Below are positions 2,109 to 57,478 of a DNA stretch of 64,000 bases, piece by piece; position 1 is the stretch's first letter, and each line of letters starts with the position of its first letter. The position numbers were made by a program, and so were the translations under genes. Under the pieces are notes generated by a model. The model was not told the DNA's origin. It saw only the letters and a program-made list of their open reading frames with translations, and did not search any database. Location of the stretch: assembly GCF_029227855.1 (NCBI RefSeq), contig NZ_CP074356.1; one strand, given 5' to 3'. The stretch comes from Escherichia coli (GTDB taxonomy: Bacteria > Pseudomonadota > Gammaproteobacteria > Enterobacterales > Enterobacteriaceae).

Positions 2109-2686
2109 GAGTTCCCCGCGCCAGCGGGGATAAACCGATTTTGGTGGCGGGGGTGACTGGGGGAATACTGAGTTCCCCGCGCCAGCGGGGATAAACCGTC
2201 CGAGCGCGTAATAGCGCGCGCCCGGAAACAGAGTTCCCCGCGCCAGCGGGGATAAACCGCGGCACCAGGGCTGAAAGGCGGGGCCGCTAAAGAGTTCCCC
2301 GCGCCAGCGGGGATAAACCGGCCAGCGGCGCTGAGTACGACGACCTGATTAAGAGTTCCCCGCGCCAGCGGGGATAAACCGTCAATACAACAGCAATGCT
2401 GGAGCTGGAAAAAGAGTTCCCCGCGCCAGCGGGGATAAACCGGTACCGTTGAGCAATGGTGGGTAAATGGTGCTGAGTTCCCCGCGCCAGCGGGGATAAA
2501 CCGATTTAGATACGGCACACAGGAATGCGCTGGATGAGTTCCCCGCGCCAGCGGGGATAAACCGCATGGGAGTCCAGATTACAAATTCCAGAATGGGAGT
2601 TCCCCGCGCCAGCGGGGATAAACCGCGTTTAGCTCCGCAATGTTGGATATCACTGATGAGTTCCCCGCACCAGCGGGAATAAACCA
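2109..2686 (+). CRISPR. Type I-E CRISPR array (orphan, queE-ygcE intergenic), 9 spacers
   Basis: Nine 29-bp repeats GAGTTCCCCGCGCCAGCGGGGATAAACCG at a 61-bp period (2109, 2170 ... 2597) plus a degenerate terminal repeat at 2658-2686; nine unique 32-bp spacers; leader on the queE side sets orientation. Confidence 0.95.
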
Positions 2687-19729: not shown

Positions 19730-22360
19730 ATGCGTAAATATCCTTTAAGTTTACTGAAGGATAAAAATATTGTGACTTTTTTTGATTTCTGGGGAAAAAC
19801 CCGACGCGGCGAGAAAGACGGGGGCGACGACTATCACCTTCTTTGCTGGCATTCGCTGGATGTAGCCGCGATGGGCTATTTAATGGTTAAAAGCAATTGC
19901 TTCGGGCTGACTGACTATTTTCGTCAACTAGGTTTCGCTGATACGGAGCAGGCAGCACAATTTTTCGCCTGGCTATTGTGCTGGCACGATACTGGAAAAT
20001 TTGCCCGCTCTTTTCAGCAACTTTACCTGCACCCACAACTCAAGGTTCCGGAAGGCGCAAGAAAGAATTACGAAAAGATCTCTCATTCAACGCTGGGCTA
20101 CTGGCTGTGGCATCATTATTTAAGTGAATACGAAGAATTGCTTCCTTCATCTTCACTCTCTCCGCGCAAACTTAAACGGGTGATGGAGATGTGGATGCCC
20201 ATGACTACCGGGCATCATGGTCGGCCCCCTGACCGTATTGATGAACTGGATAATTTTCTGCCTGAAGACAAAGCTGCCGCACGAGATTTTCTCCTTGAAA
20301 TCAAGGTACTGTTTCCGCTCATCGAGATCCCCGCATTCTGGGATGATGACGAGGGCATTGAACTTTTAAAACAACTTTCCTGGTATATCTCTGCAACCGT
20401 CGTACTCGCAGACTGGACGGGATCGTCAACGCGGTTTTTTCCACGCGTTGCACAGGCAATGGATATTAAAGATTACTGGCAGAAGGCTTTAGTTCAGGCT
20501 CAAAACGCCTTAACCGTCTTTCCTCCAAAAGCACAAACCGCGCCTTTCACCGGAATTAATACGCTGTTTCCTTTTATTGAGCACCCGACACCGTTACAGC
20601 AAAAGGTGCTGGATCTGGATATCAGCCAGCCTGGGCCACAGTTATTTATTCTGGAGGATGTGACTGGCGCAGGTAAAACAGAAGCGGCGCTTATCCTGGC
20701 CCACAGGTTGATGGCTGCGGGGAAAGCACAGGGTTTGTTTTTTGGCCTGCCAACAATGGCAACGGCCAATGCCATGTACGATCGGCTGGTAAAAACCTGG
20801 CTTGCTTTCTATTCGCCAGAATCCCGCCCCAGCCTGGTGCTGGCACACAGTGCCCGCACATTAATGGACCGCTTTAATGAATCACTCTGGTCCGGTGATT
20901 TAGTCGGGTCAGAAGAACCGGATGAACAAGCGTTCAGTCAGGGATGTGCGGCCTGGTTTGCCGACAGTAACAAGAAGGCGTTGCTGGCTGAAATTGGCGT
21001 CGGCACGCTGGATCAGGCGATGATGGCGGTGATGCCGTTTAAACATAATAATCTGCGGCTTCTGGGACTGAGTAACAAAATCCTGCTGGCTGATGAGATC
21101 CATGCCTGTGACGCTTACATGTCGTGCATTCTTGAAGGATTGATTGAGCGGCAGGCGCGTGGAGGAAACAGCGTTATTTTGCTTTCTGCCACGTTATCTC
21201 AACAGCAGCGCGACAAACTCGTTGCTGCCTTTGCGCGTGGTGCAGAGGGCCAGCAAGAAGCTCCGTTCCTGGAAAAGGATGATTACCCCTGGCTGACGCA
21301 CGTTACGAAATCGGATGTGCATTCACACCGGGTAGCAGCGCGCAAAGACGTTGAGCGTAGCGTGAGCGTGGGTTGGCTTCATAGCGAACAAGAGTGTATT
21401 GCGCGTATCGAATCGGCGGTAAGTCAGGGGAAATGCATCGCCTGGATCCGGAATTCTGTCGATGATGCTATTAAAGTTTATCGTCAGTTACTTGCCCGCG
21501 GCGTCATTCCTGCTTCCAGCCTTTCTCTTTTTCATAGCCGCTTTGCTTTTAGCGATCGCCAGCGAATTGAAACGGAAACGCTGGCACGCTTTGGTAAAGA
21601 AGATAGCTCACAGCGTGCCGGAAAAGTCCTCATTTGTACTCAGGTCTTAGAGTCGAGCGTTGATTGCGATATGGACGAAATGATTTCCGACCTTGCCCCC
21701 ATTGATTTGCTGATCCAGCGAGCGGGGCGATTACAGCGACATATCCGCGATATTAATGGTCAGTTAAAGCGTGACGGAAAAGACGAGCGTTCCCCTCCTG
21801 AATTGCTGATTCTGGCCCCCGTCTGGGACGACGCTCCAGGTGACGAATGGTTCGGCAGTGCCATGCGTAACAGTGCATATGTCTATCCCGATCATGGACG
21901 AATCTGGCTGACGCAGCGTGTACTGCGTGAGCAAGGCGCTATTCAAATGCCACACGCAGCCCGCCTTCTTATTGAATCAGTCTACGGTGAGGACGTGGTA
22001 ATGCCGGAAGGATTTGCCCGCAGCGAGCAGGAACAAGTGGGCAAATATTACTGCGATCGCGCAATGGCTAAAAAGTTTGTGCTGAACTTTAGGCCCGGCT
22101 ATGCCGCCAATATCAACGATTACCTCCCGGAAAAACTGTCGACACGTCTGGCTGAGGAGTCTGTTTCCCTGTGGCTGGCTACCTGTATTGCCGGTGTGGT
22201 GAAGCCTTATGCCAACGGTGCTCACGCATGGGAAATGAGCGTTGTCAGAGTGCGTCGAAGCTGGTGGAAAAACATCGGGATGAGTTTTCTTTACTGGAAG
22301 GGGAAGCGTTCAGGCAGTGGTGCATTGAACAGCGGAAAGATCCGGAGATGGCAAACGTGA
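19730..22360 (+). CDS. cas3: Cas3 HD-nuclease/helicase (type I-E); 3' end apparently frameshifted, with the conserved C-terminus continuing in the +1 frame to 22428
   Basis: 876-aa ORF with HD region (LLCWHSLDVAAMGYL...), DExH helicase motifs (GAGKTEAAL, LLADEIHACD). The last ~36 codons are low-complexity and basic, while ORF 22171-22428 in another frame encodes a tail resembling the K-12 Cas3 C-terminus. An in-frame GTG at 19772 is an alternative start. Confidence 0.85.
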   Translation: MRKYPLSLLKDKNIVTFFDFWGKTRRGEKDGGDDYHLLCWHSLDVAAMGYLMVKSNCFGLTDYFRQLGFADTEQAAQFFAWLLCWHDTGKFARSFQQLYLHPQLKVPEGARKNYEKISHSTLGYWLWHHYLSEYEELLPSSSLSPRKLKRVMEMWMPMTTGHHGRPPDRIDELDNFLPEDKAAARDFLLEIKVLFPLIEIPAFWDDDEGIELLKQLSWYISATVVLADWTGSSTRFFPRVAQAMDIKDYWQKALVQAQNALTVFPPKAQTAPFTGINTLFPFIEHPTPLQQKVLDLDISQPGPQLFILEDVTGAGKTEAALILAHRLMAAGKAQGLFFGLPTMATANAMYDRLVKTWLAFYSPESRPSLVLAHSARTLMDRFNESLWSGDLVGSEEPDEQAFSQGCAAWFADSNKKALLAEIGVGTLDQAMMAVMPFKHNNLRLLGLSNKILLADEIHACDAYMSCILEGLIERQARGGNSVILLSATLSQQQRDKLVAAFARGAEGQQEAPFLEKDDYPWLTHVTKSDVHSHRVAARKDVERSVSVGWLHSEQECIARIESAVSQGKCIAWIRNSVDDAIKVYRQLLARGVIPASSLSLFHSRFAFSDRQRIETETLARFGKEDSSQRAGKVLICTQVLESSVDCDMDEMISDLAPIDLLIQRAGRLQRHIRDINGQLKRDGKDERSPPELLILAPVWDDAPGDEWFGSAMRNSAYVYPDHGRIWLTQRVLREQGAIQMPHAARLLIESVYGEDVVMPEGFARSEQEQVGKYYCDRAMAKKFVLNFRPGYAANINDYLPEKLSTRLAEESVSLWLATCIAGVVKPYANGAHAWEMSVVRVRRSWWKNIGMSFLYWKGKRSGSGALNSGKIRRWQT

Positions 22361-22525
22361 TTTTAGTTACCGATGACGAAAGTTGCGGGTATTCGGCTAT
22401 GGAAGGATTGACTGGCAAGGTTGGTTGAGATGCCTGCGACAGGGCTCTCTGAATAGTTGATACACCGAAAAGGATGGAATGATGGACAACCGACCTGGGA
22501 TGGTCTTTTTTACGAGAGGATGCGT

Positions 22526-24088
22526 ATGAACTCGTTTTCACTTCTGACAACCCCGTGGTTGCCCGTTCGTTATAAAGACGGAACGACAGGCAAACTGGCG
22601 CCTGTCGATCTGGCGGATGAAAATGTTGTCGATATTGCTGCGCCACGGGCAGATCTCCAGGGAGCGGCATGGCAGTTTTTGCTGGGGCTACTACAAACCA
22701 GCTTTGCGCCAAAAGATCATCGTCGTTGGGATGATATCTGGGAAGACGGACTGGAATCTGAAAAGCTACGGGAAGCATTGCTGTCCTTAGAACACGCTTT
22801 CCAGTTTGGGCCAGATTCCCCTTCATTTATGCAGGATTTCGAGGCGCTCACAGGAGATAAAGTTCAGGTCGCTTCGCTACTGCCTGAGATTCCCGGCGCT
22901 CAAACAACGAAGTTTAATAAAGACCACTTTATCAAGCGTGGTGTAACGGAATACCTGTGCCCACATTGTTCTGCGTTAGCTCTGTTCTCCCTACAGTTAA
23001 ATGCGCCGTCAGGTGGTAAAGGCTACCGCACCGGTTTACGCGGCGGTGGGCCGATGACCACTCTGATTGAATTACAGGAATATCAGGGCAATCAACAAAC
23101 GCCCTTGTGGCGCAAACTGTGGCTCAATGTGATGCCGCAGGACGAAGCCGACTTACCGCTACCCAAAAAATTTGACGATCTGGTTTTCCCCTGGCTTGGC
23201 CCGACGCGTACCAGCGAACTGGCCGGTGCGGTGGTAACCGATGATCAGGTTAATAAACTCCAGGCGTACTGGGGAATGCCGCGGCGTATTCGTATTGATT
23301 TTAATACCACGACAGTCGGCAACTGCGATATTTGCGGCGAGCAGAACGACGCGCTCCTGAGCCTGATGACGACCAAAAATTACGGCGCGAATTATGCCAT
23401 GTGGCAGCATCCCTTAACGCCTTACCGTGTACCCCTTAAAGAGGGCGGCGAGTTTTACTCGGTCAAACCACAACCAGGCGGTTTAATCTGGCGCGACTGG
23501 TTAGGCCTTATCGAAACGGGTAAATCAGAAAACAATACGGAACTTCCCGCGCTGGTGGTGAAACTCTTTAATGCCAGCAGTCTCAAGCAGGCAAAAGTGG
23601 GCCTATGGGGATTTGGTTATGATTTTGACAACATGAAAGCGCGCTGTTGGTACGAACACCATTTCCCGCTACTGCTCAATAAAAAAGAAGGCCAGATACC
23701 GAAGCTGCGGCTGGCTGCGCAAACGGCTTCACGGATTCTGAGTCTGTTACGGAGTGCATTGAAAGAAGCATGGTTCTCCGATCCAAAAGGTGCAAGGGGT
23801 GATTTCAGTTTTGTGGATATCGACTTCTGGAACAAAACTCAGCATCGCTTCCTGAGGTTAGTGCGCCAAATTGAAGAAGGTCAGGATGCGGATGAATTAC
23901 TCGGCAAATGGCAAAAGGAAATTTGGTTATTCGCGCGTCAGGATTTTGACGAGCGTGTATTCACTAATCCTTATGAGCCCGTTGATTTGAAACGCGTCAT
24001 GACCGCGCGCAAGAAATATTTTACAACATCGGCGGAGAAGCAAAGTGCTAAAGCCGCCAGGGAGAAAAAGCAGGAGGCTGCTGAATGA
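22526..24088 (+). CDS. casA: Cascade large subunit Cse1 (CasA)
   Basis: Track ORF 22457-24088; start placed at the ATG 6 nt after a GAGAGG RBS (MNSFSLLTTPWLPVRYKDG..., 520 aa), matching the N-terminal pattern of K-12 CasA. Confidence 0.85.
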   Translation: MNSFSLLTTPWLPVRYKDGTTGKLAPVDLADENVVDIAAPRADLQGAAWQFLLGLLQTSFAPKDHRRWDDIWEDGLESEKLREALLSLEHAFQFGPDSPSFMQDFEALTGDKVQVASLLPEIPGAQTTKFNKDHFIKRGVTEYLCPHCSALALFSLQLNAPSGGKGYRTGLRGGGPMTTLIELQEYQGNQQTPLWRKLWLNVMPQDEADLPLPKKFDDLVFPWLGPTRTSELAGAVVTDDQVNKLQAYWGMPRRIRIDFNTTTVGNCDICGEQNDALLSLMTTKNYGANYAMWQHPLTPYRVPLKEGGEFYSVKPQPGGLIWRDWLGLIETGKSENNTELPALVVKLFNASSLKQAKVGLWGFGYDFDNMKARCWYEHHFPLLLNKKEGQIPKLRLAAQTASRILSLLRSALKEAWFSDPKGARGDFSFVDIDFWNKTQHRFLRLVRQIEEGQDADELLGKWQKEIWLFARQDFDERVFTNPYEPVDLKRVMTARKKYFTTSAEKQSAKAAREKKQEAAE

Positions 24089-24621
24089 GTATTGTAAAAG
24101 AGGAGCACAAAGCCACGCTGCGTAAATGGCACGAAGAGTTGCAGGAAAAACGCGGCAATCGTGCCAGTCTGCGGCGTAGCACAACGGTTAATGATGTTTG
24201 TCTGTCAGAAGGGTTTCGTTCTCTGCTGATGCAGACCCACACGTTGTGGAAAATTGAATCACAGGAGTGGCGTTTTACCGCACTGGCGCTGGTTGCCGCC
24301 GTTGCCGCCAATGTAAAAGCCATTGATGAACGGCAGCCTTTTGCCGCGCAGTTGGCGGCGGTAATGTCTGAGGGGCGTTTTACTCGCCTGTCGGCAGTCA
24401 AAACGCCGGATGAATTACTGCGCCAGTTACGTCGCGCGGTCAAATTATTAAATGGTTCCGTCAATCTTATCTCTTTGGCAGACGATATTTTCCGCTGGTG
24501 CCAGGAGAGCGACGATCTGCTCAATCATCACCGCCGCCAGCAGCGGCCAACAGAATTTATCCGTATCCGCTGGGCGCTGGAATATTACCAGGCTGGCGAC
24601 GCCGATAACGAACAAAATTAA
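24085..24621 (+). CDS. casB: Cascade small subunit Cse2 (CasB)
   Basis: 178-aa ORF MSIVKEEHKATLRKWHEELQEKRGNRASLRR...; overlaps the casA stop; position in the cascade operon. Confidence 0.85.
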   Translation: MSIVKEEHKATLRKWHEELQEKRGNRASLRRSTTVNDVCLSEGFRSLLMQTHTLWKIESQEWRFTALALVAAVAANVKAIDERQPFAAQLAAVMSEGRFTRLSAVKTPDELLRQLRRAVKLLNGSVNLISLADDIFRWCQESDDLLNHHRRQQRPTEFIRIRWALEYYQAGDADNEQN

Positions 24622-24635
24622 TAAAGGACTATCTC

Positions 24636-25691
24636 ATGACGACATTTATTCAGCTTCATTTGTTAACCGCTTACCCTGCTGCCAACCTTAACCGTGATGA
24701 CACCGGTGCGCCAAAAACTGTGGTACTGGGTGGAGCAACGCGTCTGCGCGTTTCCTCACAAAGTCTGAAACGTGCGTGGCGCACTTCTGCACTTTTTGAA
24801 CAGGCACTGGCGGGCCATATTGGTATTCGCAGTGGGCGTATTGCGCGTGAGGCGGCAACTATCCTGATTGAGAAAGGCATCGAAGAGAAAAAAGCCATCG
24901 AATGGGCGGCAAAAATTGCGGATTATCTTGGGAAAGCTAAAAACGACAAAAAACCAAAAGATCCGCTCACTAACGCCGAAACTGAACAGCTAGTCCATAT
25001 CAGCCCGGCAGAATTTGACGCCGTAAAAGCGCTGGCCCATCAACTGGCCGAAGAAAAGCGCGCGCCAAAAGAGGAAGATCTCGCTTTGTTACGTAAAGAT
25101 CGCATGGCGGTAGATATCGCTATGTTTGGTCGTATGCTGGCGAATAAACCCGAATTTAATGTTGAAGCCGCCTGCCAGGTCGCGCATGCATTTGGTGTCA
25201 GTGAAACGATTGTCGAAGATGATTTTTTCACCGCCGTTGATGATTTGCGCCAGGCTTCTGAAGATGCCGGTGCCGGGCATCTTGGTGAAACCGGATTCGG
25301 TTCTGCGCTGTTCTACACCTATATCTGCATCGATAAAGATCTGCTGGTCGAAAACCTCGGCGGTGACGAAGCGTTAGCTAATCAGACCTTGCGCGCCTTT
25401 ACGGAAGCCGCACTTAAAGTCTCCCCAACCGGCAAACAGAACAGCTTTGCCAGCCGTGCCTACGCCTCCTGGGCGCTGGCAGAAAAAGGCACTGAACAAC
25501 CACGCTCTCTGGCGGCGGCTTTCTATGAACCCATTAATGGCACCCGGCAGTTAGATGTGGCGGTGCAGCGTATTACAACGCTTCGCGAAAATATGAATAC
25601 GGTCTATGAACAGAAGACCGAATGCGCAAGCTTTGACGTGATGAACAAACAGGGAAGCATGAAGGACGTGCTGGACTTTATCTGCGCGTAA
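24636..25691 (+). CDS. casC: Cascade backbone subunit Cas7e (CasC)
   Basis: 351-aa ORF MTTFIQLHLLTAYPAANLNRDDTGAPKTVVLGGATRLRVSSQSLKRAWR... Confidence 0.9.
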   Translation: MTTFIQLHLLTAYPAANLNRDDTGAPKTVVLGGATRLRVSSQSLKRAWRTSALFEQALAGHIGIRSGRIAREAATILIEKGIEEKKAIEWAAKIADYLGKAKNDKKPKDPLTNAETEQLVHISPAEFDAVKALAHQLAEEKRAPKEEDLALLRKDRMAVDIAMFGRMLANKPEFNVEAACQVAHAFGVSETIVEDDFFTAVDDLRQASEDAGAGHLGETGFGSALFYTYICIDKDLLVENLGGDEALANQTLRAFTEAALKVSPTGKQNSFASRAYASWALAEKGTEQPRSLAAAFYEPINGTRQLDVAVQRITTLRENMNTVYEQKTECASFDVMNKQGSMKDVLDFICA

Positions 25692-25701
25692 GGGGCGGCT
25701 A

Positions 25702-26448
25702 ATGAGCCAATATTTGATTTTTCAGCTTCATGGGCCAATGGCATCCTGGGGCGTCGATGCCCCCGGCGAAGTGCGTCATACCCATGAACTGCCTTCGCGC
25801 TCAGCATTGCTGGGGCTGCTGGCTGCCGGGGTAGGGATTCGGCGTGATGATACCGAACGATTAAACGTGTTTAACCGCCACTATTCACTGGTGGTTTGCG
25901 CCAGCCGTAACCCGCGCTGGGCACGGGATTATCACACAATCCAGATGCCAAAAGAGGTGCGTAAAGCGCGTTATTTCAGCCGTCGCGAAGAGTTGAGCGA
26001 CCCTGATCTTCTGAGCGCGATTATCTCCCGGCGCGACTACTACACCGACGCCTGGTGGATGGTGGCGGTGGCAACAACAGCCGATGCGCCTTACAGCCTC
26101 GAACAGTTGCAGGGCGGTTTACGCCATCCAGTTTTTCCTCTTTATCTGGGGCGAAAAAGTCATCCGCTGGCGTTACCACTTGCGCCGTTACTGCTCGAAG
26201 GCAACGCGTCTGATGTCTTACGTAACGCATACCAACAGTATCAGGATAGTTTCCGCGAACTGAAAGTCTCACTCCCGAAACTTCAGGATGAATGCTGGTG
26301 GGAAGGGGAACACGACGGCCTGGTCGCGAGCAAAATATTACGTCGCCGGGATGTTCCTTTAAATCGTCAGCAGTGGCTGTTTGGGGAACGCACCATCAAT
26401 CAGGGGCCGTGGCTCAGCAAGGAGGAACCATGTACCTCTCAAGAATAA
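25702..26448 (+). CDS. casD: Cascade subunit Cas5e (CasD)
   Basis: 248-aa ORF MSQYLIFQLHGPMASWGVDAPGEVRHT...; same N-terminal pattern as K-12 CasD (MRSYLILRLAGPMQAWG). Confidence 0.9.
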   Translation: MSQYLIFQLHGPMASWGVDAPGEVRHTHELPSRSALLGLLAAGVGIRRDDTERLNVFNRHYSLVVCASRNPRWARDYHTIQMPKEVRKARYFSRREELSDPDLLSAIISRRDYYTDAWWMVAVATTADAPYSLEQLQGGLRHPVFPLYLGRKSHPLALPLAPLLLEGNASDVLRNAYQQYQDSFRELKVSLPKLQDECWWEGEHDGLVASKILRRRDVPLNRQQWLFGERTINQGPWLSKEEPCTSQE

Positions 26449-27076
26449 CCTTACATACCGGCCAGCTTTCGCCTGCGCAGTTGCTGCATCTGGTGGATCG
26501 CGGTGAATATGTAATGCATCAGTGGCTGTGGGATCTTTTTCCTGGCGGCAAAGAAAGGCAATTTCTTTATCGTCGGGAAGAACTCCTGGGGGCGTTTCGC
26601 TTTTTTGTCCTGTCGCAGGAACGCCCGGCGGAAAATGATATTTTCACCATCGAATGCCGACCATTTGCGCCAGAGTTGCGTACCGGACAATCCCTTTGTT
26701 TCAACCTGCGGGCGAATCCAACAATTTGTAAAGCGGGCAAACGCCACGACTTGCTGATGGAGGCGAAACGGCAGGTGAGGGGGCAGGTGGAAGGAAGTGA
26801 TGTCTGGTTGCATCAACAACAGGCGGCGCTGGACTGGCTGGCAGCGCAGGGGGAAAGAAGCGGTTTTACACTACTGGATACCTCGGTCGATGCCTACCGA
26901 CAACAGCAACTGCGGCGGGAAAACTCCCGGCAACTGATCCAGTTCAGTAGCGTGGATTATACGGGGATGCTTACGGTCACCGATCCTGGGTTATTTCTGC
27001 AACGTCTGAGCCAGGGGTATGGCAAAAGCCGCGCGTTCGGCTGTGGTCTGATGCTGATCAAACCCGGAGCAGAGGC

Positions 27077-27080
<4 letters not shown>
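26430..27080 (+). CDS. casE: crRNA endoribonuclease Cas6e (CasE)
   Basis: Track ORF 26292-27080; start at ATG after AGGAGG RBS (MYLSRITLHTGQLSPAQLLHLVDRGEYVMHQWLWDLFPG..., 216 aa); C-terminal GCGLM-type motif. Confidence 0.85.
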
Positions 27081-28290
<1,210 letters not shown>

Positions 28291-28386
28291 GTTATCTGTT
28301 CTTTAAAAATAAGGAAATGTTTTAATTTAGTTGGTAGATTGTTGATGCGGAATAAATTTGTTTAAAAACAGTTATGTATGCTTAGT
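28291..28386 (+). promoter_or_regulatory. CRISPR leader of array 2 (AT-rich, GTTGGTAGATTGT box)
   Basis: 96-bp AT-rich spacer between the cas2 stop and the first repeat; box TTTAGTTGGTAGATTGTTGATG shared with the array 1 leader. Confidence 0.5.
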
Positions 28387-29025
28387 GTGTTCCCCGCGCC
28401 AGCGGGGATAAATCGAGATCACCGTGTTAAATAACCGATTGAACGCCGTGTTCCCCGCGCCAGCGGGGATAAATCGGCCAGGCCAATACAGTTGGCGAAG
28501 AAGCGAAGGTGTTCCCCGCGCCAGCGGGGATAAATCGACACCGGGCTGGATAAAAAAACTATCGGGAAAGTGTTCCCCGCGCCAGCGGGGATAAATCGCC
28601 GTTTGATAGCTGTTCACGCTGGCTGATGCCGTGTTCCCCGCGCCAGCGGGGATAAACCGCGCAGTTCGCTACCGAGCGTGGTTTGCTGGTCGTGTTCCCC
28701 GCGCCAGCGGGGATAAACCGGCGCACAGCGACGCGAAATCAACGAAAATTTAGTGTTCCCCGCGCCAGCGGGGATAAACCGATTGCCAGATACTGTGTAT
28801 ATCCACCGACTAAGTGTTCCCCGCGCCAGCGGGGATAAACCGCAGGGAAACCGTTCGTACTTATCGACCTCAACGTGTTCCCCGCGCCAGCGGGGATAAA
28901 CCGAAGGGGACGGCTACGGGACGCCGCCTATTGATGTGTTCCCCGCGTCAGCGGGGATAAACCGGACGCACTGGATGCGATGATGGACATCACTTGGAGT
29001 TCCCCGCCCCTGCGGTAGAACTCCC
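28387..29025 (+). CRISPR. Type I-E CRISPR array (cas-associated), 10 spacers
   Basis: Ten 29-bp repeats at a 61-bp period (28387 ... 28936) plus a degenerate terminal repeat at 28997-29025; ten unique 32-bp spacers. Repeats 1-4 end AAATCG, repeats 5-10 end AAACCG. Confidence 0.95.
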
Positions 29026-39050: not shown

Positions 39051-39112
39051 ATCGGCGGAACCAGGCTTTTGCTTGAATGTTCCGTCAAGGGATCACGGGT
39101 AGGAGCCACCTT

Positions 39113-40105
39113 ATGAGTCAGAATACGCTGAAAGTTCATGATTTAAATGAAGATGCGGAATTTGATGAGAACGGAGTTGAGGTTTTTGACGAAAAGGCCT
39201 TAGTAGAAGAGGAACCCAGTGATAACGATTTGGCCGAAGAGGAACTGTTATCGCAGGGAGCCACACAGCGTGTGCTGGACGCGACTCAGCTTTACCTTGG
39301 TGAGATTGGTTATTCACCACTGTTAACGGCCGAAGAAGAAGTTTATTTTGCGCGTCGCGCACTGCGTGGAGATGTTGCCTCCCGCCGCCGGATGATCGAG
39401 AGTAACTTGCGTCTGGTGGTAAAAATTGCCCGCCGTTATGGCAATCGTGGTCTGGCGTTGCTGGACCTGATCGAAGAGGGCAACCTGGGGCTGATCCGCG
39501 CGGTAGAGAAGTTTGACCCGGAACGTGGTTTCCGCTTCTCAACATACGCAACCTGGTGGATTCGCCAGACGATCGAACGGGCGATTATGAACCAAACCCG
39601 TACTATTCGTTTGCCTATTCACATCGTAAAGGAGCTGAACGTTTACCTGCGAACCGCACGCGAGTTGTCCCATAAACTGGACCACGAACCAAGTGCGGAA
39701 GAGATCGCAGAGCAACTGGATAAGCCAGTTGATGACGTCAGCCGTATGCTTCGTCTTAACGAGCGCATTACCTCGGTAGACACCCCGCTGGGTGGTGATT
39801 CCGAAAAAGCGTTGCTGGACATCCTGGCCGATGAAAAAGAGAACGGTCCGGAAGATACCACGCAAGATGACGATATGAAGCAGAGCATCGTCAAATGGCT
39901 GTTCGAGCTGAACGCCAAACAGCGTGAAGTACTGGCACGTCGATTCGGTTTGCTGGGGTACGAAGCGGCAACACTGGAAGATGTAGGTCGTGAAATTGGC
40001 CTCACCCGTGAACGTGTTCGCCAGATTCAGGTTGAAGGCCTGCGCCGTTTGCGCGAAATCCTGCAAACGCAGGGGCTGAATATCGAAGCGCTGTTCCGCG
40101 AGTAA
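39113..40105 (+). CDS. rpoS: RNA polymerase sigma factor RpoS (sigma-38), apparently intact
   Basis: Track ORF 39077-40105; start at [40 protein letters not shown]... (330 aa); sigma-70 family regions 2-4; no internal stop. Confidence 0.95.
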
Positions 40106-41493: not shown

Positions 41494-42087
41494 ATGAAAC
41501 TGATCGTCGGGATGACAGGGGCTACCGGTGCGCCTCTTGGTGTGGCATTACTGCAAGCGCTGCGGGAGATGCCGAATGTCGAGACTCATCTGGTGATGTC
41601 GAAGTGGGCGAAAACCACTATTGAACTGGAAACGCCTTACAGCGCTCGCGATGTTGCCGCCCTCGCAGACTTCAGCCATAACCCGGCGGATCAGGCGGCG
41701 ACCATCTCCTCAGGTTCCTTTCGTACCGACGGCATGATCGTTATTCCGTGCAGTATGAAAACGCTCGCCGGTATCCGTGCCGGTTACGCCGATGGCCTGG
41801 TAGGGCGCGCGGCGGACGTCGTGCTCAAAGAAGGCCGCAAACTAGTGCTGGTGCCGCGTGAAATGCCGCTTAGCACCATCCATCTCGAAAATATGCTCGC
41901 ACTTTCACGCATGGGCGTGGCGATGGTGCCGCCGATGCCTGCCTTTTATAACCATCCCGAAACGGTAGATGACATTGTCCACCACGTGGTAGCCCGCGTG
42001 CTGGATCAATTTGGCCTCGAACATCCCCACGCCAGGCGCTGGCAAGAATTGCCGCAGGTCCGGAATTTTTCTCAGGAGAATGAATAA
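41494..42087 (+). CDS. UbiX-like flavin prenyltransferase (decarboxylase subunit B; Pad1/KpdB/EcdB type)
   Basis: 197-aa ORF MKLIVGMTGATGAPLGVALLQALREMPNVETHLVMSKWAKTTIELE... Confidence 0.85.
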   Translation: MKLIVGMTGATGAPLGVALLQALREMPNVETHLVMSKWAKTTIELETPYSARDVAALADFSHNPADQAATISSGSFRTDGMIVIPCSMKTLAGIRAGYADGLVGRAADVVLKEGRKLVLVPREMPLSTIHLENMLALSRMGVAMVPPMPAFYNHPETVDDIVHHVVARVLDQFGLEHPHARRWQELPQVRNFSQENE

Positions 42088-43514
42088 TGGCATTTGATAA
42101 TTTACGCAGCTTTTTACAGGCGCTTGATGACCACGGCCAGTTACTGAAAATCAGCGAAGAGGTGAACGCGGAACCGGATCTGGCAGCAGCAGCTAACGCC
42201 ACCGGGCGTATCGGCGACGGCGCGCCCGCGCTGTGGTTTGACAATATTCGCGGCTTTACCGATGCCCGTGTGGCGATGAATACCATCGGTTCCTGGCAGA
42301 ACCACGCGATTTCCCTCGGCCTGCCGCCAAACACCCCGGTCAAAAAGCAGATTGATGAGTTTATCCGCCGCTGGGATAACTTCCCCATTGCCCCGGAGCG
42401 CCGCGCCAATCCAGCCTGGGCGCAGAACACCGTCGATGGCGACGAGATCAACCTGTTCGATATCCTGCCGCTGTTTCGTTTAAACGATGGCGATGGCGGT
42501 TTCTATCTCGACAAAGCGTGCGTGGTTTCCCGCGATCCGCTCGACCCGGATAACTTCGGCAAGCAGAACGTCGGTATCTATCGTATGGAAGTGAAGGGCA
42601 AACGTAAGCTCGGCCTGCAACCGGTGCCGATGCACGATATCGCCCTGCATCTGCATAAAGCGGAAGAACGCGGTGAAGATCTGCCGATTGCCATCACCTT
42701 GGGTAACGATCCGATCATCACGCTGATGGGGGCCACGCCGCTGAAATATGATCAGTCCGAGTATGAAATGGCAGGCGCGCTGCGCGAAAGCCCGTACCCG
42801 ATCGCCACCGCCCCGCTGACCGGTTTTGATGTGCCGTGGGGCTCGGAAGTGATCCTCGAAGGGGTCATCGAAAGCCGTAAACGCGAAATCGAAGGGCCGT
42901 TCGGTGAGTTTACCGGGCACTACTCCGGCGGGCGTAACATGACCGTGGTGCGTATCGATAAAGTCTCTTACCGCACCAGGCCGATTTTCGAATCGCTGTA
43001 CCTCGGCATGCCGTGGACAGAAATCGACTACCTGATGGGGCCAGCCACCTGCGTGCCGCTGTATCAGCAACTGAAAGCCGAGTTCCCGGAAGTGCAGGCG
43101 GTGAACGCCATGTACACCCACGGCCTGCTGGCGATTATCTCCACCAAAAAACGCTACGGTGGCTTTGCCCGCGCGGTGGGCCTGCGTGCGATGACCACGC
43201 CACACGGTCTGGGCTACGTGAAGATGGTGATTATGGTCGATGAAGACGTTGATCCGTTCAACCTGCCGCAGGTGATGTGGGCGCTCTCTTCGAAAGTGAA
43301 CCCGGCAGGGGATTTGGTGCAGTTGCCGAATATGTCCGTGCTGGAACTCGACCCTGGCTCAAGCCCGGCCGGTATCACCGACAAGCTGATTATCGACGCC
43401 ACCACGCCTGTCGCCCCGGACAACCGTGGTCACTACAGCCAGCCGGTGGTGGATTTACCGGAAACCAAAGCCTGGGCTGAAAAACTGACCGCTATGCTGG
43501 CCGCACGTAAATAA
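42087..43514 (+). CDS. UbiD-family non-oxidative aromatic acid decarboxylase (subunit C)
   Basis: 475-aa ORF MAFDNLRSFLQALDDHGQLLKISEEVNAEPDLAAAANATGR...; UbiD family by recalled similarity. Confidence 0.85.
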   Translation: MAFDNLRSFLQALDDHGQLLKISEEVNAEPDLAAAANATGRIGDGAPALWFDNIRGFTDARVAMNTIGSWQNHAISLGLPPNTPVKKQIDEFIRRWDNFPIAPERRANPAWAQNTVDGDEINLFDILPLFRLNDGDGGFYLDKACVVSRDPLDPDNFGKQNVGIYRMEVKGKRKLGLQPVPMHDIALHLHKAEERGEDLPIAITLGNDPIITLMGATPLKYDQSEYEMAGALRESPYPIATAPLTGFDVPWGSEVILEGVIESRKREIEGPFGEFTGHYSGGRNMTVVRIDKVSYRTRPIFESLYLGMPWTEIDYLMGPATCVPLYQQLKAEFPEVQAVNAMYTHGLLAIISTKKRYGGFARAVGLRAMTTPHGLGYVKMVIMVDEDVDPFNLPQVMWALSSKVNPAGDLVQLPNMSVLELDPGSSPAGITDKLIIDATTPVAPDNRGHYSQPVVDLPETKAWAEKLTAMLAARK

Positions 43515-43524
43515 GGAGAACAAG

Positions 43525-43761
43525 ATGATTTGTCCACGTTGTGCCGATGAACAGATTGAAGTGATGGCGAAATCGCCGGTAAAAGATGTCTGGACGGTCT
43601 ACCAGTGCCAGCATTGCCTCTATACCTGGCGCGATACCGAACCGCTACGCCGCACCAGCCGCGAACATTACCCGGAAGCGTTTCGTATGACGCAGAAAGA
43701 CATTGATGACGCGCCAATGGTGCCGAGCATTCCGCCGCTGCTGGCGGAAGGTAAGCGCTAA
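43525..43761 (+). CDS. Decarboxylase small subunit D (zinc-ribbon-like, four Cys)
   Basis: 78-aa ORF MICPRCADEQIEVMAKSPVKDVWTVYQCQHCLYTWRD... with CxxC...CxxC; third gene of the B-C-D operon, 10 bp after subunit C. Confidence 0.7.
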   Translation: MICPRCADEQIEVMAKSPVKDVWTVYQCQHCLYTWRDTEPLRRTSREHYPEAFRMTQKDIDDAPMVPSIPPLLAEGKR

Positions 43762-43763
43762 AT

Positions 43764-43795
43764 AAAAGGTCCGATGCCCATCGGACCTTTTTATT
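43764..43795. terminator. Bidirectional hairpin terminator between convergent decarboxylase operon and ygbN
   Basis: AAAAGGTCCGATG...CATCGGACCTTTTT: GC-rich hairpin flanked by A-run and T-run. Confidence 0.5.
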
Positions 43796-43799
43796 AAGG

Positions 43800-45164
43800 T
43801 CAAATTACCGCCCATACGCACCAGGTAATTAAGAATCCGGTAAAACCGAGAATGGTCGTTAACACTGTCCAGGTTTTCAGACCGTCTGCTACCGACAACC
43901 CCAGATATTTGGTCACAATCCAGAACCCTGAGTCATTAATATGTGACGCGCCAAGCCCACCAAAGCAGGCTGCCAGCGTCACCAATACGCACTGAATCGG
44001 ATTCAATCCCATCACCGCTTCTGAGAGTAACCCGCCGGTTGTCAGGATTGCTACGGTTGCTGACCCCTGCGATGCACGCAGCGCCAGTGAAATAATAAAT
44101 GCGGCTGGTAACAGAGGCAGGTCAATCATTTGTAGCATGTTGGCAAGGGCTTTGCCGACGCCCGATTCCACCAGCACTTTGCCAAATACCCCTCCAGCAC
44201 CAGTAACCAAAATCACTACCGCCGCGGTGGGAAGGGCTGAGCCCATAATGTCGCTGGTGTGTTGTAAGCTCCAGCCGCGACGTAAAGCCAATAACCAGAA
44301 TGCCAGCACCAGCGCAATCATTAGAGCTACCATTGGTGAGCCGATCAGCTGTAGCGTACCAAGCAGGGGATGCGAAGGCGGCATCAGTGTTGCGGAAACC
44401 GTACCCGCCATGATAATCGCGATAGGAATAACAATTAGCGAGGTGACCAGCGCGACGCCCGGTGGATTTATTTTATCGCTTAATTTTGTCGCGCCTTCCT
44501 CACTGGCCGGAGCCAGTTGCATCTGTTCCAGTACTTCCACCGACATCGCATATTGGCACTTATTGATTATTTTCGCTGCAAAGTAGCCAACAATCCCTAC
44601 GGGAATAGAAATCGCAATACCGATGATGGTTAGCCAGCCGATGTCTGCGTGGAGTAACCCCGCTGCGGCGACAGGGCCTGGATGCGGCGGTACCGCCACA
44701 TGAACAGTTAGCATGATTCCAGCGACAGGCAGGCCAAATTTGAGTGGCGATATTTTGGCAACCTTGGCAAAACCGTAAATGATTGGCGCAAGAATAATAA
44801 AGCCGACATCAAAGAAGACGGGAATACCGAGGAAGAACGCTGCCAGAGTCAGCGCAGCGATAGTTCGTTTGTCACCTAACTTGCGACTGAAATAATTAGC
44901 CAGTGACTCTGCACCACCAGAGTGTTCGATCATACGCCCCAGCATAGCGCCCAGACCAATAATAATAGTGACGGAACCAAGCACACCGCCCATCCCGGCG
45001 ATCATCACTTTACCCACTTCGCCCGCCGGTATACCCGCCGCAAGTGCGACTAACAGGCTGACGAGGAGCAGAGCAACGAATGGTTGTACCTTTGCCTTGA
45101 TGACCAGCAGCAACAGCATGATTACGCCAGTTAACGCAATGCATAACAATGTAATTGTGGACAT
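43800..45164 (-). CDS. ygbN: GntP-family permease
   Basis: 454-aa polytopic membrane ORF MSTITLLCIALTGVIMLLLLVIKAKVQPFVALLLVSLLVALAAG... Confidence 0.85.
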   Translation of the reverse strand: MSTITLLCIALTGVIMLLLLVIKAKVQPFVALLLVSLLVALAAGIPAGEVGKVMIAGMGGVLGSVTIIIGLGAMLGRMIEHSGGAESLANYFSRKLGDKRTIAALTLAAFFLGIPVFFDVGFIILAPIIYGFAKVAKISPLKFGLPVAGIMLTVHVAVPPHPGPVAAAGLLHADIGWLTIIGIAISIPVGIVGYFAAKIINKCQYAMSVEVLEQMQLAPASEEGATKLSDKINPPGVALVTSLIVIPIAIIMAGTVSATLMPPSHPLLGTLQLIGSPMVALMIALVLAFWLLALRRGWSLQHTSDIMGSALPTAAVVILVTGAGGVFGKVLVESGVGKALANMLQMIDLPLLPAAFIISLALRASQGSATVAILTTGGLLSEAVMGLNPIQCVLVTLAACFGGLGASHINDSGFWIVTKYLGLSVADGLKTWTVLTTILGFTGFLITWCVWAVI

Positions 45165-53173: not shown

Positions 53174-53459
53174 GGGGTTATGTCCGGTTCCCTGATATTA
53201 AATGGGGTGTGATGGTTTTTATTTTCGTTGTAATCACATAAGGCGCACATGATACCGGAGTTAATCATTTCAGGGGAAGAAGCGAACGGCGAGTTCTTGA
53301 GGGTGATTCCGGGAAAGATGCTGTTTTGCAGCTTTTGCGTGATGATTATGAAGCAAGTACGCAAAATTGCGTCGGTTGAATAAACCTCCTCCTTCAGAGC
53401 CATAGTCCCCTTTCAAATTAAGTTGTAATATAAATACACCTTAAGAGTATGGAGGCAGC

Positions 53460-53804
53460 ATGTCCGGCAAGCGTATCTCTCGTGAAAAACTGACGATTAA
53501 AAAAATGATCGATCTTTATCAAGCGAAATGCCCGCAGGCGTCAGCGGAGCCGGAGCATTACGACGCGCTGTTTGCCTACGCGCAAAAGCGGCTGGATAAA
53601 TGTGTGTTCGGCGAAGAGAAACCAGCCTGTAAGCAGTGTCCGGTGCACTGTTACCAGCCTGCAAAGCGTGAAGAGATGAAACAGATTATGCGTTGGGCCG
53701 GGCCGCGAATGCTGTGGCGTCATCCGATCTTAACCGTGCGTCATCTCATCGATGACAAGCGTCCGGTGCCGGAGTTGCCAGAAAAATATCGTCCAAAGAA
53801 ATAA
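53460..53804 (+). CDS. ygbA: Nitrous-oxide-stimulated-promoter family protein
   Basis: 114-aa ORF MSGKRISREKLTIKKMIDLYQAKCPQASAEPEHYDALFAYAQKRLDKCVFGEEKPACKQCPVHCY...; K-12 synteny next to mutS. Confidence 0.8.
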   Translation: MSGKRISREKLTIKKMIDLYQAKCPQASAEPEHYDALFAYAQKRLDKCVFGEEKPACKQCPVHCYQPAKREEMKQIMRWAGPRMLWRHPILTVRHLIDDKRPVPELPEKYRPKK

Positions 53805-53842
53805 ATCTGCCGGAGAGCCATACTCTCCGGCAAATAAGGCGT

Positions 53843-54271
53843 TTACGCTTTGGTGGCAATCAGGATGGCTGATGCTTTGATCAATGCAATAACGCGCGAG
53901 CCAGTGGTGAGTTTCATTTCATCCTGACTTTCATTTGTTACCACTGCCACAATTTCAAAACCCGCATCCGTTTTGATATGGACAGTGGCGTTCACTGCGC
54001 CTTCGGTGATTGTCGACACGCTGCCAGCAAACTGGTTGCGAGCAGAGAATTTCAGTCCACAGTCTTCCGTTGCCAGCGTTACCCACGGGGCTTTAATCAG
54101 GGCAATCGCTTCTTTCCCTTTCGCCAGACCCAGAGCCTGCTGGCTGCTGTGAGTCACAATTGCCACCAGCTTTGCACCACCTGCCAGCGTCAGTTCTACT
54201 TCGTCATTCACCGCGCCCATTGCTACTGCGCTAACTGTTCCGGTTAATTGATTTCTTGCTGAAACTGCCAT
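53843..54271 (-). CDS. Tandem TOBE/Mop-domain protein (molbindin-like)
   Basis: Track ORF 53843-54310; start placed at the ATG following an AAGGAGG RBS (MAVSARNQLTGTVSAVAMGAVNDEVELTLAGG..., 142 aa); two repeats of the SARNQ...G.V Mop signature; 45 bp downstream of the fhlA stop, same strand. Confidence 0.7.
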   Translation of the reverse strand: MAVSARNQLTGTVSAVAMGAVNDEVELTLAGGAKLVAIVTHSSQQALGLAKGKEAIALIKAPWVTLATEDCGLKFSARNQFAGSVSTITEGAVNATVHIKTDAGFEIVAVVTNESQDEMKLTTGSRVIALIKASAILIATKA

Positions 54272-54315
54272 ACTGCCTCCTTTCATTGAATGTTGATCGA
54301 GTATAACCACATCTG

Positions 54316-56394
54316 TTAAATCAATGCCGATTTATCAATTCCCAGTCGCTTCATCCGTGACAGCAGAGTCGTGCGTTTCAGCCCCAGACGTTGCGCAGCG
54401 CCTTTAGGCCCGGCAACCACGCCGTTTGTTTCTTTCAGCACGCGAACAATCAACTGATATTCATCTTCGCCCTCCTGGGCGACAACCGTTGCGGCAGGCG
54501 GCGTTTCTGGTTCCGGTAAAACAATATCTGGCAGTGACAGCTGCAGCACGTTGCCGCGTGTTAGCAATACCGCGCGCTCGATGACGTTTTCCAGTTCGCG
54601 CACGTTACCCGGCCACTCCATGTTGCTCAAGGTGCGCAACGTCTCGGCAGGAATGCTGTCGATATTGCGCCCCAGACGACGGGCAATTTTGAAGGTAAAG
54701 GCTTTCGCCAGCAGCGGAATATCTTCCGGACGCTCGCGCAGGGGCGGCAGGTGGATCGGGAATACGTTCAGGCGGTAATAGAGATCGCTACGGAACTCTC
54801 GGTCGGCGACCATTTTTTTCAGATCGCGGTTAGTCGCGGCAATTAAACGTACGTCCGTCTGAATGATTTTGTTGCTGCCGAGGCGTTCAAACTCCTGTTC
54901 CTGTAATACACGCAGCAACTTCGGCTGTAACTCCAGTGGCATATCGCCCACTTCGTCGAGGAACAGGGAGCTTTTATCCGCCAGTTCAAAACGACCAATG
55001 CGCTGGGCGCTGGCACCGGTAAAAGCCCCACGCTCATGACCAAACAGATCGCTCTCCAGCAATCCGGCAGGCATCGCCGCGCAGTTCATTTTTACCATGC
55101 GGCGATTATTACGCCCACTGAGATTATGGATAGCACGGGCAATCAGCTCTTTACCTGTACCAGTTTCACCGAGAATCAGCACGGTACTGTCGCTTTGCGC
55201 CACCATTTCAACTTGTTTAAGTACGCTGTACATGGCTTCGCTGCGGCCAATAATCTCGCCAAATTCACTATCAACATTGTTGAGCTGCTCGGTCAGGGCG
55301 AGGTTTTCATCAACCAGCCGTTCTTTCAGACGATGGATTTCCTGATAGGCGAGGGCGTTATCGACAGCGATTGCCACACGTTCGGCAATCTGGCGCAGTA
55401 AATTCAGATTGGTAGTGGTAAACACTTTCTCTTCGCATTGCGCCAGTTTCAGCACGCCCAGCATGGTGTCGCCAGACATCAGCGGTAACAGGCACAAGGT
55501 TTGAATCTGGTTGCCCCAGGTGTCGAACAACATGCGTTCATAGGGGGCTAAATCGTCCCGCTCGTGGAGATTAATCAGCAGCATCTCTTTGCTTTTGAAC
55601 ACGCGTTCGGTGAGGGTTCCGGCTTCATCGACTTCGCTCTGTTCGTGGGCGGGATGCTGTTTATCAAGATAGTGAGTGGAGTAGATGTTGAGTTTGTTTT
55701 TACGGTGGCTGCGTAAGACGATGCTGATATCGTCAATGTCGAAGTAGTAATGGATTTCTTTGGCGACTTCGCTGACCAGTTCGTCCATATCCAGGCGGGA
55801 AAGCACCGCGTTGGTGATGGCGACCAGGATACGGAAGTTATCGCGCTCCCGGCATAACAACTCATAGTCGACATTATTGACGACGCGGCTCTGGATTTGT
55901 TCGGTGACGACAGAAACGATCTGCGTAAATGTTTGCAGACGATTGAACTCTTTTTCGCTCCAGGGGCGATCGTCATAACGAATAAATTCACAGCCACCAA
56001 AAATATGCCCTTCCGCCGCCAGTGGCATCAGGCAATAGTGACCAAATTTGGGGTATAGCCCACCTGCGGCCAGCTGCGGCCAGGTTTCACAAAATTCTTC
56101 GTAACTGCAATGCAGCGTATCAGGGCGCGACAAAATGCTGCGTACCGGACCGTGTGCCAGAACAGTTTCGTCTTCATATTTAATGGGGGTGTCTTTTTCA
56201 CGCGATGCGTAATAAGACGCACGTTGAGTCTGCGCTTGCCACAACACAATAGCCGCGTTGTCGGCGAGCGCAGAACGCTTTACCAGTTGCGAAAGAGCCT
56301 CACACAGCGAGGCCAGATCGGGCTGCTGCAATAGTGTCCGAGTGATGTCGAACAACCCTTGTTGTCCGAGATCACTCATCGGTGTATATGACAT
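54316..56394 (-). CDS. fhlA: Formate hydrogenlyase transcriptional activator (sigma-54 enhancer-binding protein)
   Basis: Track ORF 54316-56430; start at MSYTPMSDLGQQGLFDITRTLLQQPDLASL... (692 aa); GAF domains, AAA+ sigma-54 activation domain (GETGTGKE, GAFTGA), C-terminal HTH. Confidence 0.9.
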   Translation of the reverse strand: MSYTPMSDLGQQGLFDITRTLLQQPDLASLCEALSQLVKRSALADNAAIVLWQAQTQRASYYASREKDTPIKYEDETVLAHGPVRSILSRPDTLHCSYEEFCETWPQLAAGGLYPKFGHYCLMPLAAEGHIFGGCEFIRYDDRPWSEKEFNRLQTFTQIVSVVTEQIQSRVVNNVDYELLCRERDNFRILVAITNAVLSRLDMDELVSEVAKEIHYYFDIDDISIVLRSHRKNKLNIYSTHYLDKQHPAHEQSEVDEAGTLTERVFKSKEMLLINLHERDDLAPYERMLFDTWGNQIQTLCLLPLMSGDTMLGVLKLAQCEEKVFTTTNLNLLRQIAERVAIAVDNALAYQEIHRLKERLVDENLALTEQLNNVDSEFGEIIGRSEAMYSVLKQVEMVAQSDSTVLILGETGTGKELIARAIHNLSGRNNRRMVKMNCAAMPAGLLESDLFGHERGAFTGASAQRIGRFELADKSSLFLDEVGDMPLELQPKLLRVLQEQEFERLGSNKIIQTDVRLIAATNRDLKKMVADREFRSDLYYRLNVFPIHLPPLRERPEDIPLLAKAFTFKIARRLGRNIDSIPAETLRTLSNMEWPGNVRELENVIERAVLLTRGNVLQLSLPDIVLPEPETPPAATVVAQEGEDEYQLIVRVLKETNGVVAGPKGAAQRLGLKRTTLLSRMKRLGIDKSALI

Positions 56395-56467
56395 TTTGTT
56401 CTTCCAGGAAAGCACCGCAAAGCGGTGCAAAAGGTCATTGACTAACTATAGGAGATTTAGAATTTTA

Positions 56468-57478
56468 TTAGCATATACGCGGAAGCGGTTCGGCGTGTGG
56501 TAAATCGAGGGTTCGTTTCACGCCATACAGACCGGCAAGACGAACACCTTTACGTTCCACCACTTCACCAATCAGCGCCGCGTCTTTCCCCAGTGGATGG
56601 GAATGTAACGCTGCCAAAACTTGCTCTGCCGCGTTGCGTTCAACGGCGATCACCAGTTTGCCTTCGTTGGCAAAGTTAAGGGCGTCCAGTCCCAGCAGTT
56701 CGCAAACGCCGCGCACAGCAGGTTTAACCGGCAGTGCCGCTTCTGAAATTTCAATACCGCAACCGCAGGCTGCCGCGAACTCATGAACTACCGCGTTTAC
56801 ACCACCACGGGTGGCATCACGCAGCGCTTTCACGCCGGGAATGTCACGCAGCGTCTGAATAAGCGGCGTTAGTACCGCGCAGTCGCTGACCAGTTCGCCG
56901 TCCAGCCCCAGTTGCTCACGCAGGTTAAGGATAGTCGCCCCGTGGTCGCCGAGCGTGCCGCTAACCAGTAATACATCGCCTGCGGTTAGCGTCTGTGCGC
57001 CCCAGTGAATATTCGCCGGAATTGCGCCCATGCCAGCGGTGTTGATAAACAGTTTATCTGCCGCGCCGCGCTGCACCACTTTAGTATCGCCAGTGACGAT
57101 GGCAATGCCTGCCGCGCGGGCGGTTTCTGCCATGCTGGTCACTACGGCTTTCAGTGTCTCCATCGGCAATCCTTCTTCGAGGATAAAGCCACAGGAGAGA
57201 TAGCGCGGAATAGCGCCACTGACCGCTACGTCATTCGCGGTGCCGCAAATCGCCAGCTTGCCGATATTACCGCCAGGAAAGAACAGCGGGTCAATGACGT
57301 AACTGTCGGTGGAGAACGCCAGACGGTCGCCTTCCGCTACCAGCTGCGCCAGATCAAGACGGGCCTGATCTTCCTGCTCTGCCAGCCACGGGTTGGCAAA
57401 GGCTTCCATAAACAGGCTGTTGATTAATTGCTGCATCGCCTGGCCGCCGCTACCGTGGGCGAGTTGGATATTATTCAC
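56468..57478 (-). CDS. hypE: Hydrogenase maturation protein HypE
   Basis: 336-aa ORF MNNIQLAHGSGGQAMQQLINSLFMEAFANPWLAEQEDQARLD...; C-terminal PRIC. Confidence 0.9.
   Translation of the reverse strand: MNNIQLAHGSGGQAMQQLINSLFMEAFANPWLAEQEDQARLDLAQLVAEGDRLAFSTDSYVIDPLFFPGGNIGKLAICGTANDVAVSGAIPRYLSCGFILEEGLPMETLKAVVTSMAETARAAGIAIVTGDTKVVQRGAADKLFINTAGMGAIPANIHWGAQTLTAGDVLLVSGTLGDHGATILNLREQLGLDGELVSDCAVLTPLIQTLRDIPGVKALRDATRGGVNAVVHEFAAACGCGIEISEAALPVKPAVRGVCELLGLDALNFANEGKLVIAVERNAAEQVLAALHSHPLGKDAALIGEVVERKGVRLAGLYGVKRTLDLPHAEPLPRIC

Follow-up and report, generated by a model that had tools for sequence, protein, structure and literature searches.

A ModG-like tandem Mop gene follows fhlA in part of Escherichia coli and has been deleted in lineages that include K-12

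The gene that lies between fhlA and ygbA in this strain of E. coli, here called mop, is likely to encode a cytoplasmic molybdate (or tungstate) binder of the ModG type, and to be an ancestral gene that stands as the final one ahead of the fhlA terminator. It was studied in a window of 64,000 nucleotides, which is the whole stretch of DNA that was analysed. The gene is an ordinary and already annotated accessory gene. Its existence, place and predicted function are on record, and in view of its prior annotation and its mention in two papers (PMC4209514; PMC7232297) it is not a discovery; nor does anything in its product depart from a well-understood protein family. A search of the literature on the enterobacterial protein found no functional study, only descriptive mentions, and a 2020 review of the molybdoenzymes of pathogens mentions neither Mop nor ModG.

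The features of the locus, with their positions in the window, are:

53843..54271, minus strand: mop, a modG-like coding sequence of 142 amino acids plus stop codon (RefSeq WP_000301062.1; c3292 in strain CFT073)
54316..56394, minus strand: fhlA, 692 amino acids, upstream of mop
54272..54315, minus strand: the fhlA-mop spacer, 44 nt
54276..54283, minus strand: Shine-Dalgarno sequence AAAGGAGG, 4 nt upstream of the mop ATG
54300..54305, minus strand: TATACT, a -10-like box in the fhlA-mop spacer
54074..54262, minus strand: first Mop/TOBE domain, amino acids 4-66
53861..54046, minus strand: second Mop/TOBE domain, amino acids 76-137
53795..53835, minus strand: intrinsic terminator, a 14-bp GC-rich hairpin with a T-rich tail
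53460..53804, plus strand: ygbA, 114 amino acids, the convergent downstream neighbour of mop

The mop reading frame runs on the minus strand from the ATG at 54271 to a TAA at 53843..53845, a distance of 142 codons, and the stop codon of fhlA occupies 54316..54318 on that strand. The list of open reading frames also contains a longer reading of 155 amino acids from a GTG at 54310; all of the orthologues begin with MAVSARNQ behind the ribosome-binding site, so the 142-amino-acid protein is the correct product. The GGAGG core of the ribosome-binding site is kept in nearly all of the orthologous spacers. An earlier note on this DNA had described a 142-amino-acid protein with two TOBE/Mop repeats and a strong ribosome-binding site, encoded 45 bp past fhlA on the same strand. 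The reading frame agrees with the Pfam and NCBIfam matches on the nature of the protein, the AAAGGAGG element stands where such a site was claimed and the two genes do share a strand, the distance between them being 44 nt and not 45. That note named no annotated gene at this place in K-12, and K-12 does lack it; in other strains the gene is annotated, as the RefSeq entry and c3292 of CFT073 show. All of the E. coli records listed carry the annotation 'TOBE domain-containing protein' with one exception, which is called a 'molybdopterin-binding protein'. Beyond ygbA, between that gene and mutS, there is a small open reading frame of 44 amino acids (53249..53383, plus strand); in the related genomes L001 and L002 a hypothetical protein, likewise of 44 amino acids, is annotated at its position on the strand opposite to mutS.

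The Pfam TOBE domain occurs twice in the mop product, at amino acids 4-66 (E=1.6e-17) and 76-137 (E=6.2e-16), with no other domain, and the NCBIfam model TIGR00638 'Mop' also has two matches in it, scoring 142 bits where the cutoff is 55. The best solved relative is Azotobacter vinelandii ModG (1H9J; E=5e-33 over residues 1-140), with about 49% identity over the full length, followed by the C-terminal di-Mop domain of E. coli ModE (E about 1e-15) and then by single-domain Mop and Tub proteins. We built an AlphaFold (AF2) monomer model on a 32-sequence alignment that spans Escherichia to Caballeronia and includes a Neisseriaceae genome and A. vinelandii ModG. The model has a mean pLDDT of 96.6 and its top Foldseek matches are the three ModG structures 1H9J, 1H9K and 1H9M, with TM scores of 0.94-0.95 and an rmsd of 1.3-1.4 Å (0.95 and 1.3 Å for 1H9J). 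The ligand residues were assigned from the list published for Tub, a tungstate store of the Mop family (PMC11980592), which aligns without gaps to each half of the protein with identical numbering. In Tub the type-1 site uses the backbone of Ala20-Val21-Asn22, and the type-2 site uses Ser4, Arg6, Lys60 and Ala61 together with Ser40 of the adjacent chain (PMC11980592). The predicted ligand residues of the mop product are S4, R6, A20-V21-N22, T40, K60 and A61 in the first domain and S76, R78, A92-V93-N94, T112, K132 and A133 in the second, with a glycine ahead of each type-1 loop (G19-A20-V21-N22 and G91-A92-V93-N94). Apart from V93I in some sequences, the ligand residues are invariant in the 32-sequence alignment, ModG included. 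The earlier description of the protein as a molybdate-binding type is consistent with its sequence, which is that of a tandem-Mop molbindin with the predicted oxyanion-contacting residues complete in both halves. Sequence, fold and ligand residues all give good support to the view that the mop product is a full-length orthologue of A. vinelandii ModG.

ModG (PDB 1H9J, 1H9K, 1H9M) is a cytoplasmic di-Mop molbindin whose length of 141-145 amino acids compares with 142 here, and the mop product resembles it in consisting of two Mop domains only and in keeping both types of ligand site in both halves. It is the genetic setting that differs. In the literature, modG of A. vinelandii is part of a mod locus and serves the molybdenum supply of nitrogenase; ModG is described as aiding molybdenum homeostasis and nitrogenase synthesis in that organism, and modG is ModE-controlled to judge by the title of a reference cited in the same paper (PMC11980592). 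In contrast, mop follows fhlA in a cluster devoted to hydrogenase maturation and the regulation of formate hydrogenlyase (FHL), and has no ModE operator-like pattern. Each half of the mop product also aligns residue for residue with single-domain Mop proteins, among them Clostridium pasteurianum MopII (1GUG), Sporomusa Mop (1FR3) and Eubacterium limosum Tub (9BEB), at E values of about 1e-9 to 1e-5, matching them at the type-1 (A20, V21, N22) and type-2 (S4, R6, S/T40, K60, A61) positions. The single-domain proteins are 7-kDa hexamers, whereas the mop product has two domains fused, so that a trimer of it would give the same six-domain particle. The OB-like TOBE fold is shared with the TOBE domain of the ABC ATPases ModC, WtpC and MalK; unlike these, the mop product is without an ATPase domain and the similarity is weak (E from 1e-12 to 1e-6, with scores far below the cutoffs).

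The synteny of mop was surveyed at 80 loci, using one genome per species. In 36 of the 80, fhlA is directly upstream of mop on the same strand, with spacers of 36-101 nt, and these loci come from about 11 genera (Escherichia, Citrobacter, Pseudocitrobacter, Klebsiella, Raoultella, Kluyvera, Pluralibacter, Enterobacter, Yokenella, Lelliottia and Kosakonia). The gene is present in E. albertii, in a cryptic lineage of Escherichia and in E. fergusonii (see also PMC7232297). This adjacency across genera indicates that the Enterobacteriaceae inherited the arrangement from their ancestor and that alleles of the K-12 type arose by deletion. Among more distant Enterobacterales (Serratia, Hafnia, Edwardsiella, Cedecea, Mangrovibacter and others), the relatives share 55-73% identity and are located elsewhere. 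In L071 (labelled Martelella alba) and L073 (Sodalis sp.) they adjoin genes for a WtpA-like oxyanion-binding protein and ModD.

Several genomes have kept mop and lost fhlA. In Raoultella sp. BIGb0138 (L014), fhlA is reduced to its final 45 nt or so, and the gene upstream of mop is now one for a 6-phospho-beta-glucosidase. Enterobacter sp. BIGb0383 (L031) has mop with no match to fhlA within the fetched locus, and the open reading frame upstream closely resembles, by eye, the glucosidase of L014. In Phytobacter and Kosakonia sp. S29 the order is hypE, a tail of about 40 nt of fhlA, and mop. A related copy in Salmonella, 89% identical, is isolated, with an IS21 istB fragment and fimbrial usher genes as its neighbours (5001..5429 of L084, Salmonella enterica GCA_034444905.1, and again in L085), and is not at the fhlA/SPI-1 locus. 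It retains about 55 nt of upstream DNA that include the GGCTATACT box and the ribosome-binding site, which suggests that mop moved horizontally as a self-sufficient unit. Its retention in the Raoultella, Phytobacter and Kosakonia sp. S29 genomes and its relocation in Salmonella show that mop does not depend on fhlA. The two independent deletions of fhlA, one in BIGb0138 and the other in Phytobacter and Kosakonia sp. S29, both spared the last 40-50 nt or so before mop (4950..5018 in L014; about 4870..5000 in L036, L041 and L076). The retained tail could be important for the expression of mop, or this could be a coincidence.

Within E. coli, 1892 of 5426 complete genomes (about 35%) have mop, always as a single chromosomal copy; carriers include the extraintestinal pathogen CFT073 and the ST131 strain JJ1886. 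The earlier note had named no such gene in K-12 and had asked if it is present and intact there and in other strains. MG1655 has a gene-free gap of 36 bp between fhlA and ygbA with no trace of mop, and BL21 and O157:H7 resemble it there; intactness holds among the carriers, where 1889 of the 1892 copies span 80% or more of the gene and nearly all are full length. Alignment of the two haplotypes gives a clean gap that opens just past the stop codon of fhlA and closes at that of mop. A stop-codon-to-stop-codon deletion of about 473 bp has thus removed mop in lineages that include K-12, B and O157. We rejected an insertion in phylogroup B2 as the origin of the difference because mop occupies the same site in E. 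albertii, cryptic Escherichia, E. fergusonii, Citrobacter, Klebsiella and others. About 65% of E. coli have lost the gene and all of these have the FHL genes at the locus. Because so many complete genomes are without it, mop is dispensable, and any role in storage would be auxiliary.

Traces of this polymorphism are already in the literature. The CFT073 gene c3292 is listed as a 'putative molybdenum-pterin-binding protein', and a longer fhlA-mutS amplicon (1,673 bp against 1,208 bp) is the marker of 'pattern III' strains, one restriction type of which consists of phylogroup B2 strains only (PMC4209514). The window strain has two type I-E CRISPR arrays (2109..2686 and 28387..28964), both made up of ten 29-bp repeats with a period of 61 bp, those of the second array differing from those of the first by 1-2 bases, with a full cas3-casABCDE-cas1-cas2 operon in between, on the plus strand at about 19730..28300. 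Type I-E CRISPR-Cas is unusual in phylogroup B2, so its occurrence here suggests that mop may not be restricted to that phylogroup. The window also contains kpdBCD-like genes for a hydroxyarylic acid decarboxylase at 41500..43800 (the subunit C reading frame is 42087..43514), located in the polymorphic mutS-rpoS region between rpoS (39077..40105) and ygbN (43800..45164, minus strand), and this fits one of the strain-specific patterns of PMC4209514.

The 44-nt spacer between fhlA and mop contains no hairpin or terminator (fold z = +0.53). A terminator hairpin at 53805..53835 (-25.4 kcal/mol, z = -5.35) begins 7 nt past the mop stop codon, and a homologous hairpin stands directly 3' of fhlA in K-12 and BL21. 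Since the spacer has no terminator and the fhlA hairpin is now behind mop, the gene appears to lie inside the fhlA transcription unit. Co-transcription of the two genes is plausible from the sequence, and the simplest way for mop to be expressed would be by read-through from fhlA. The fhlA gene is also transcribed from promoters of the hyp operon. The hairpin is common to fhlA/mop and the convergent ygbA (window 53805..53835; 1614..1639 of the BL21 locus, L002), and its stems show compensatory changes between the haplotypes with mop (GCCGGAGAG/CTCTCCGGC) and without it (GCCGGACAG/CTGTCCGGC). YgbA has 114 amino acids here and 117 in K-12 and BL21.

The -10-like box is about 26 nt ahead of the mop ATG and is conserved as GG(C/T)TATA(C/A)(T/A) in Escherichia, Citrobacter, Kluyvera and Pluralibacter and in the relocated Salmonella copy; the rest of the spacer varies. 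Its conservation and its transfer with the Salmonella copy make a weak promoter belonging to mop itself possible. A consensus scan of the minus strand near mop found no canonical sigma-70 promoter and, by eye, the TATACT box has no acceptable -35 element. A sigma-54 promoter was rejected on direct reading of the spacer, where the GG-N10-GC spacing does not occur. The ModE operator pattern TATAT-N6-8-TAYAT has no match in the whole window, and there is thus no sign that ModE controls mop. An Rfam scan of 53300..56600 (E of at most 1) found no RNA element such as a Moco riboswitch. A regulatory element within the 3' end of fhlA was also considered and rejected: the entropy of synonymous codons over the last 40 codons is 1.15-1.27 against a mean of 0.86 for the gene in an alignment of only nine gap-free sequences, and values above the mean indicate no excess of conservation.

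For the oligomeric state, the binding and preference of ligands, the expression and the physiology of the mop product we infer the following from this evidence. One chain would form two Mop/TOBE beta-barrel domains and, by analogy with the crystals of ModG, three chains would assemble into a pseudo-hexamer with room for up to eight oxyanions. Two of these would be located on the three-fold axis, held by the backbone amides of A20-V21-N22 and A92-V93-N94, and the other six at domain interfaces formed by S4/R6/K60/A61 with T40 and by S76/R78/K132/A133 with T112. The protein most likely serves as a buffer or store of molybdate for the enzymes that use molybdenum cofactor. Because its gene stands last, directly ahead of the fhlA terminator, the protein is probably produced alongside FhlA and the Hyp proteins in fermentation, at the time when the molybdenum enzyme FDH-H is built, and its own weak promoter may add to expression from the operon.

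A more ambitious reading, which the earlier note had advanced as a link between molybdenum availability and FHL expression, is that the molybdate-binding protein tunes that expression, for example by titrating free molybdate away from ModE/MoeA or by touching FhlA, and is co-transcribed with fhlA for that purpose. The short spacer and the adjacency kept in about 11 genera speak for it, as does the lack of a terminator between the genes; molybdate is known to influence the expression of FHL (PMC3149613), and ModG has its reported role in molybdenum homeostasis and nitrogenase synthesis in A. vinelandii (PMC11980592). We nevertheless regard it as improbable, and the link as claimed is unsupported. 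The mop product has no DNA-binding or other output domain, the gene outlasts fhlA in Raoultella sp., Phytobacter and Kosakonia sp. S29, the Salmonella copy stands without fhlA, and the relatives in other Enterobacterales have unrelated or transport contexts, some distant ones lying beside WtpA-like and ModD genes. Moreover, the known molybdate input to hyc and fdhF in K-12-type strains runs through ModE (with MoeA), alongside FhlA and formate (PMC3149613), in strains that lack mop as do about 65% of E. coli. Taken together, the lack of an output domain, of a ModE operator and of an Rfam element, the independence from fhlA and the frequency of loss make a dedicated regulator from molybdenum to FHL unlikely. 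An indirect effect on FHL through the buffering of free molybdate is possible.

The preferred reading, a molybdate buffer or store, also has to be set against one in which the protein is mainly a tungstate binder ('TudG'-type) that sequesters tungstate competing with molybdate in the synthesis of the FDH-H cofactor. Sites of the Mop family bind both oxyanions, Tub takes tungstate and molybdate alike, and ModG-type architectures are reported from more tungsten-using than molybdenum-using gut species (PMC11980592). The L071 and L073 relatives beside WtpA-like binding proteins point in the same direction. The closest solved relative binds molybdate, however, nothing in the sequence discriminates between the two anions, and we know of no tungstoenzyme in E. 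coli, which we count against a tungstate function; we hold it to be distinctly improbable.

Far less credible still is that mop is the decayed fragment of a second modE gene, although the NCBIfam ModE model does match residues 3-140 with its C-terminal half and the gene has been labelled 'modE' (PMC7232297). The mop product shares with the C-terminal di-Mop region of E. coli ModE (PDB 1B9M, 1O7L, 1H9S) a tandem Mop fold (TM 0.88-0.90; about 34-36% identity) and, with the first Mop domain of ModE, the common SARNQ, T..S and KA ligand motifs. Unlike ModE, it is without an N-terminal winged-helix DNA-binding domain, and the second Mop domain of ModE has lost its motifs (ADNQ, with no KA) while that of the mop product keeps all of its ligand residues and is predicted to be ligand-competent, which marks the protein as ModG-like and not as a remnant of ModE. 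The match to NF007957 scores 88 bits against a cutoff of 369 and covers only profile positions 124-261, and ModG is a nearer relative of the protein than ModE is (E=5e-33 against 1e-15; 48% against about 34% identity). With its own ribosome-binding site and an ATG 44 nt past fhlA, mop has no space for a helix-turn-helix remnant, and it is under strong purifying selection. Together, the score, the closeness to ModG, the ligand residues, the start signals and the selection refute descent from a modE fragment.

That selection is seen in a dN/dS of 0.02-0.10 (pairwise Nei-Gojobori against 13 orthologues), a range like that of fhlA from the same loci. In the database 2759 proteins match the product at E values of at most 1e-10, and relatives of the same length with 77-99% identity occur in E. 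fergusonii, E. albertii, Citrobacter, Klebsiella, Raoultella, Kluyvera, Pluralibacter, Enterobacter, Kosakonia, Pantoea and some Salmonella. A chance open reading frame or a pseudogene without a product, for which only the absence from K-12 speaks, is refuted by this dN/dS, by the constant 142 amino acids between genera, by the completeness of the E. coli copies and by the high confidence of the predicted structure.

The gene is one that K-12-centred knowledge has overlooked, and the practical value of recognising it is small. A predicted dedicated cytoplasmic molbindin is encoded in about 35% of complete E. coli genomes and in most Enterobacteriaceae, and what remains of interest is the conserved placement of its gene beside fhlA and its function in enterobacteria. 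If the protein affects the supply of molybdenum to FDH-H or to other molybdoenzymes, it could explain differences between strains in anaerobic metabolism. We consider it improbable that mop, as a conserved terminal cistron of the hyp-fhlA operon, couples the cytoplasmic molybdate pool to the biogenesis of FDH-H and FHL or to ModE-sensed signalling. If that were true, the textbook molybdenum-dependence of FHL would have been derived from strains (the K-12, B and O157 lineages) that are missing one component, and pathogens that carry mop (B2/ExPEC, Klebsiella and Citrobacter) would differ from them in niches that are low in molybdenum or contain tungstate.
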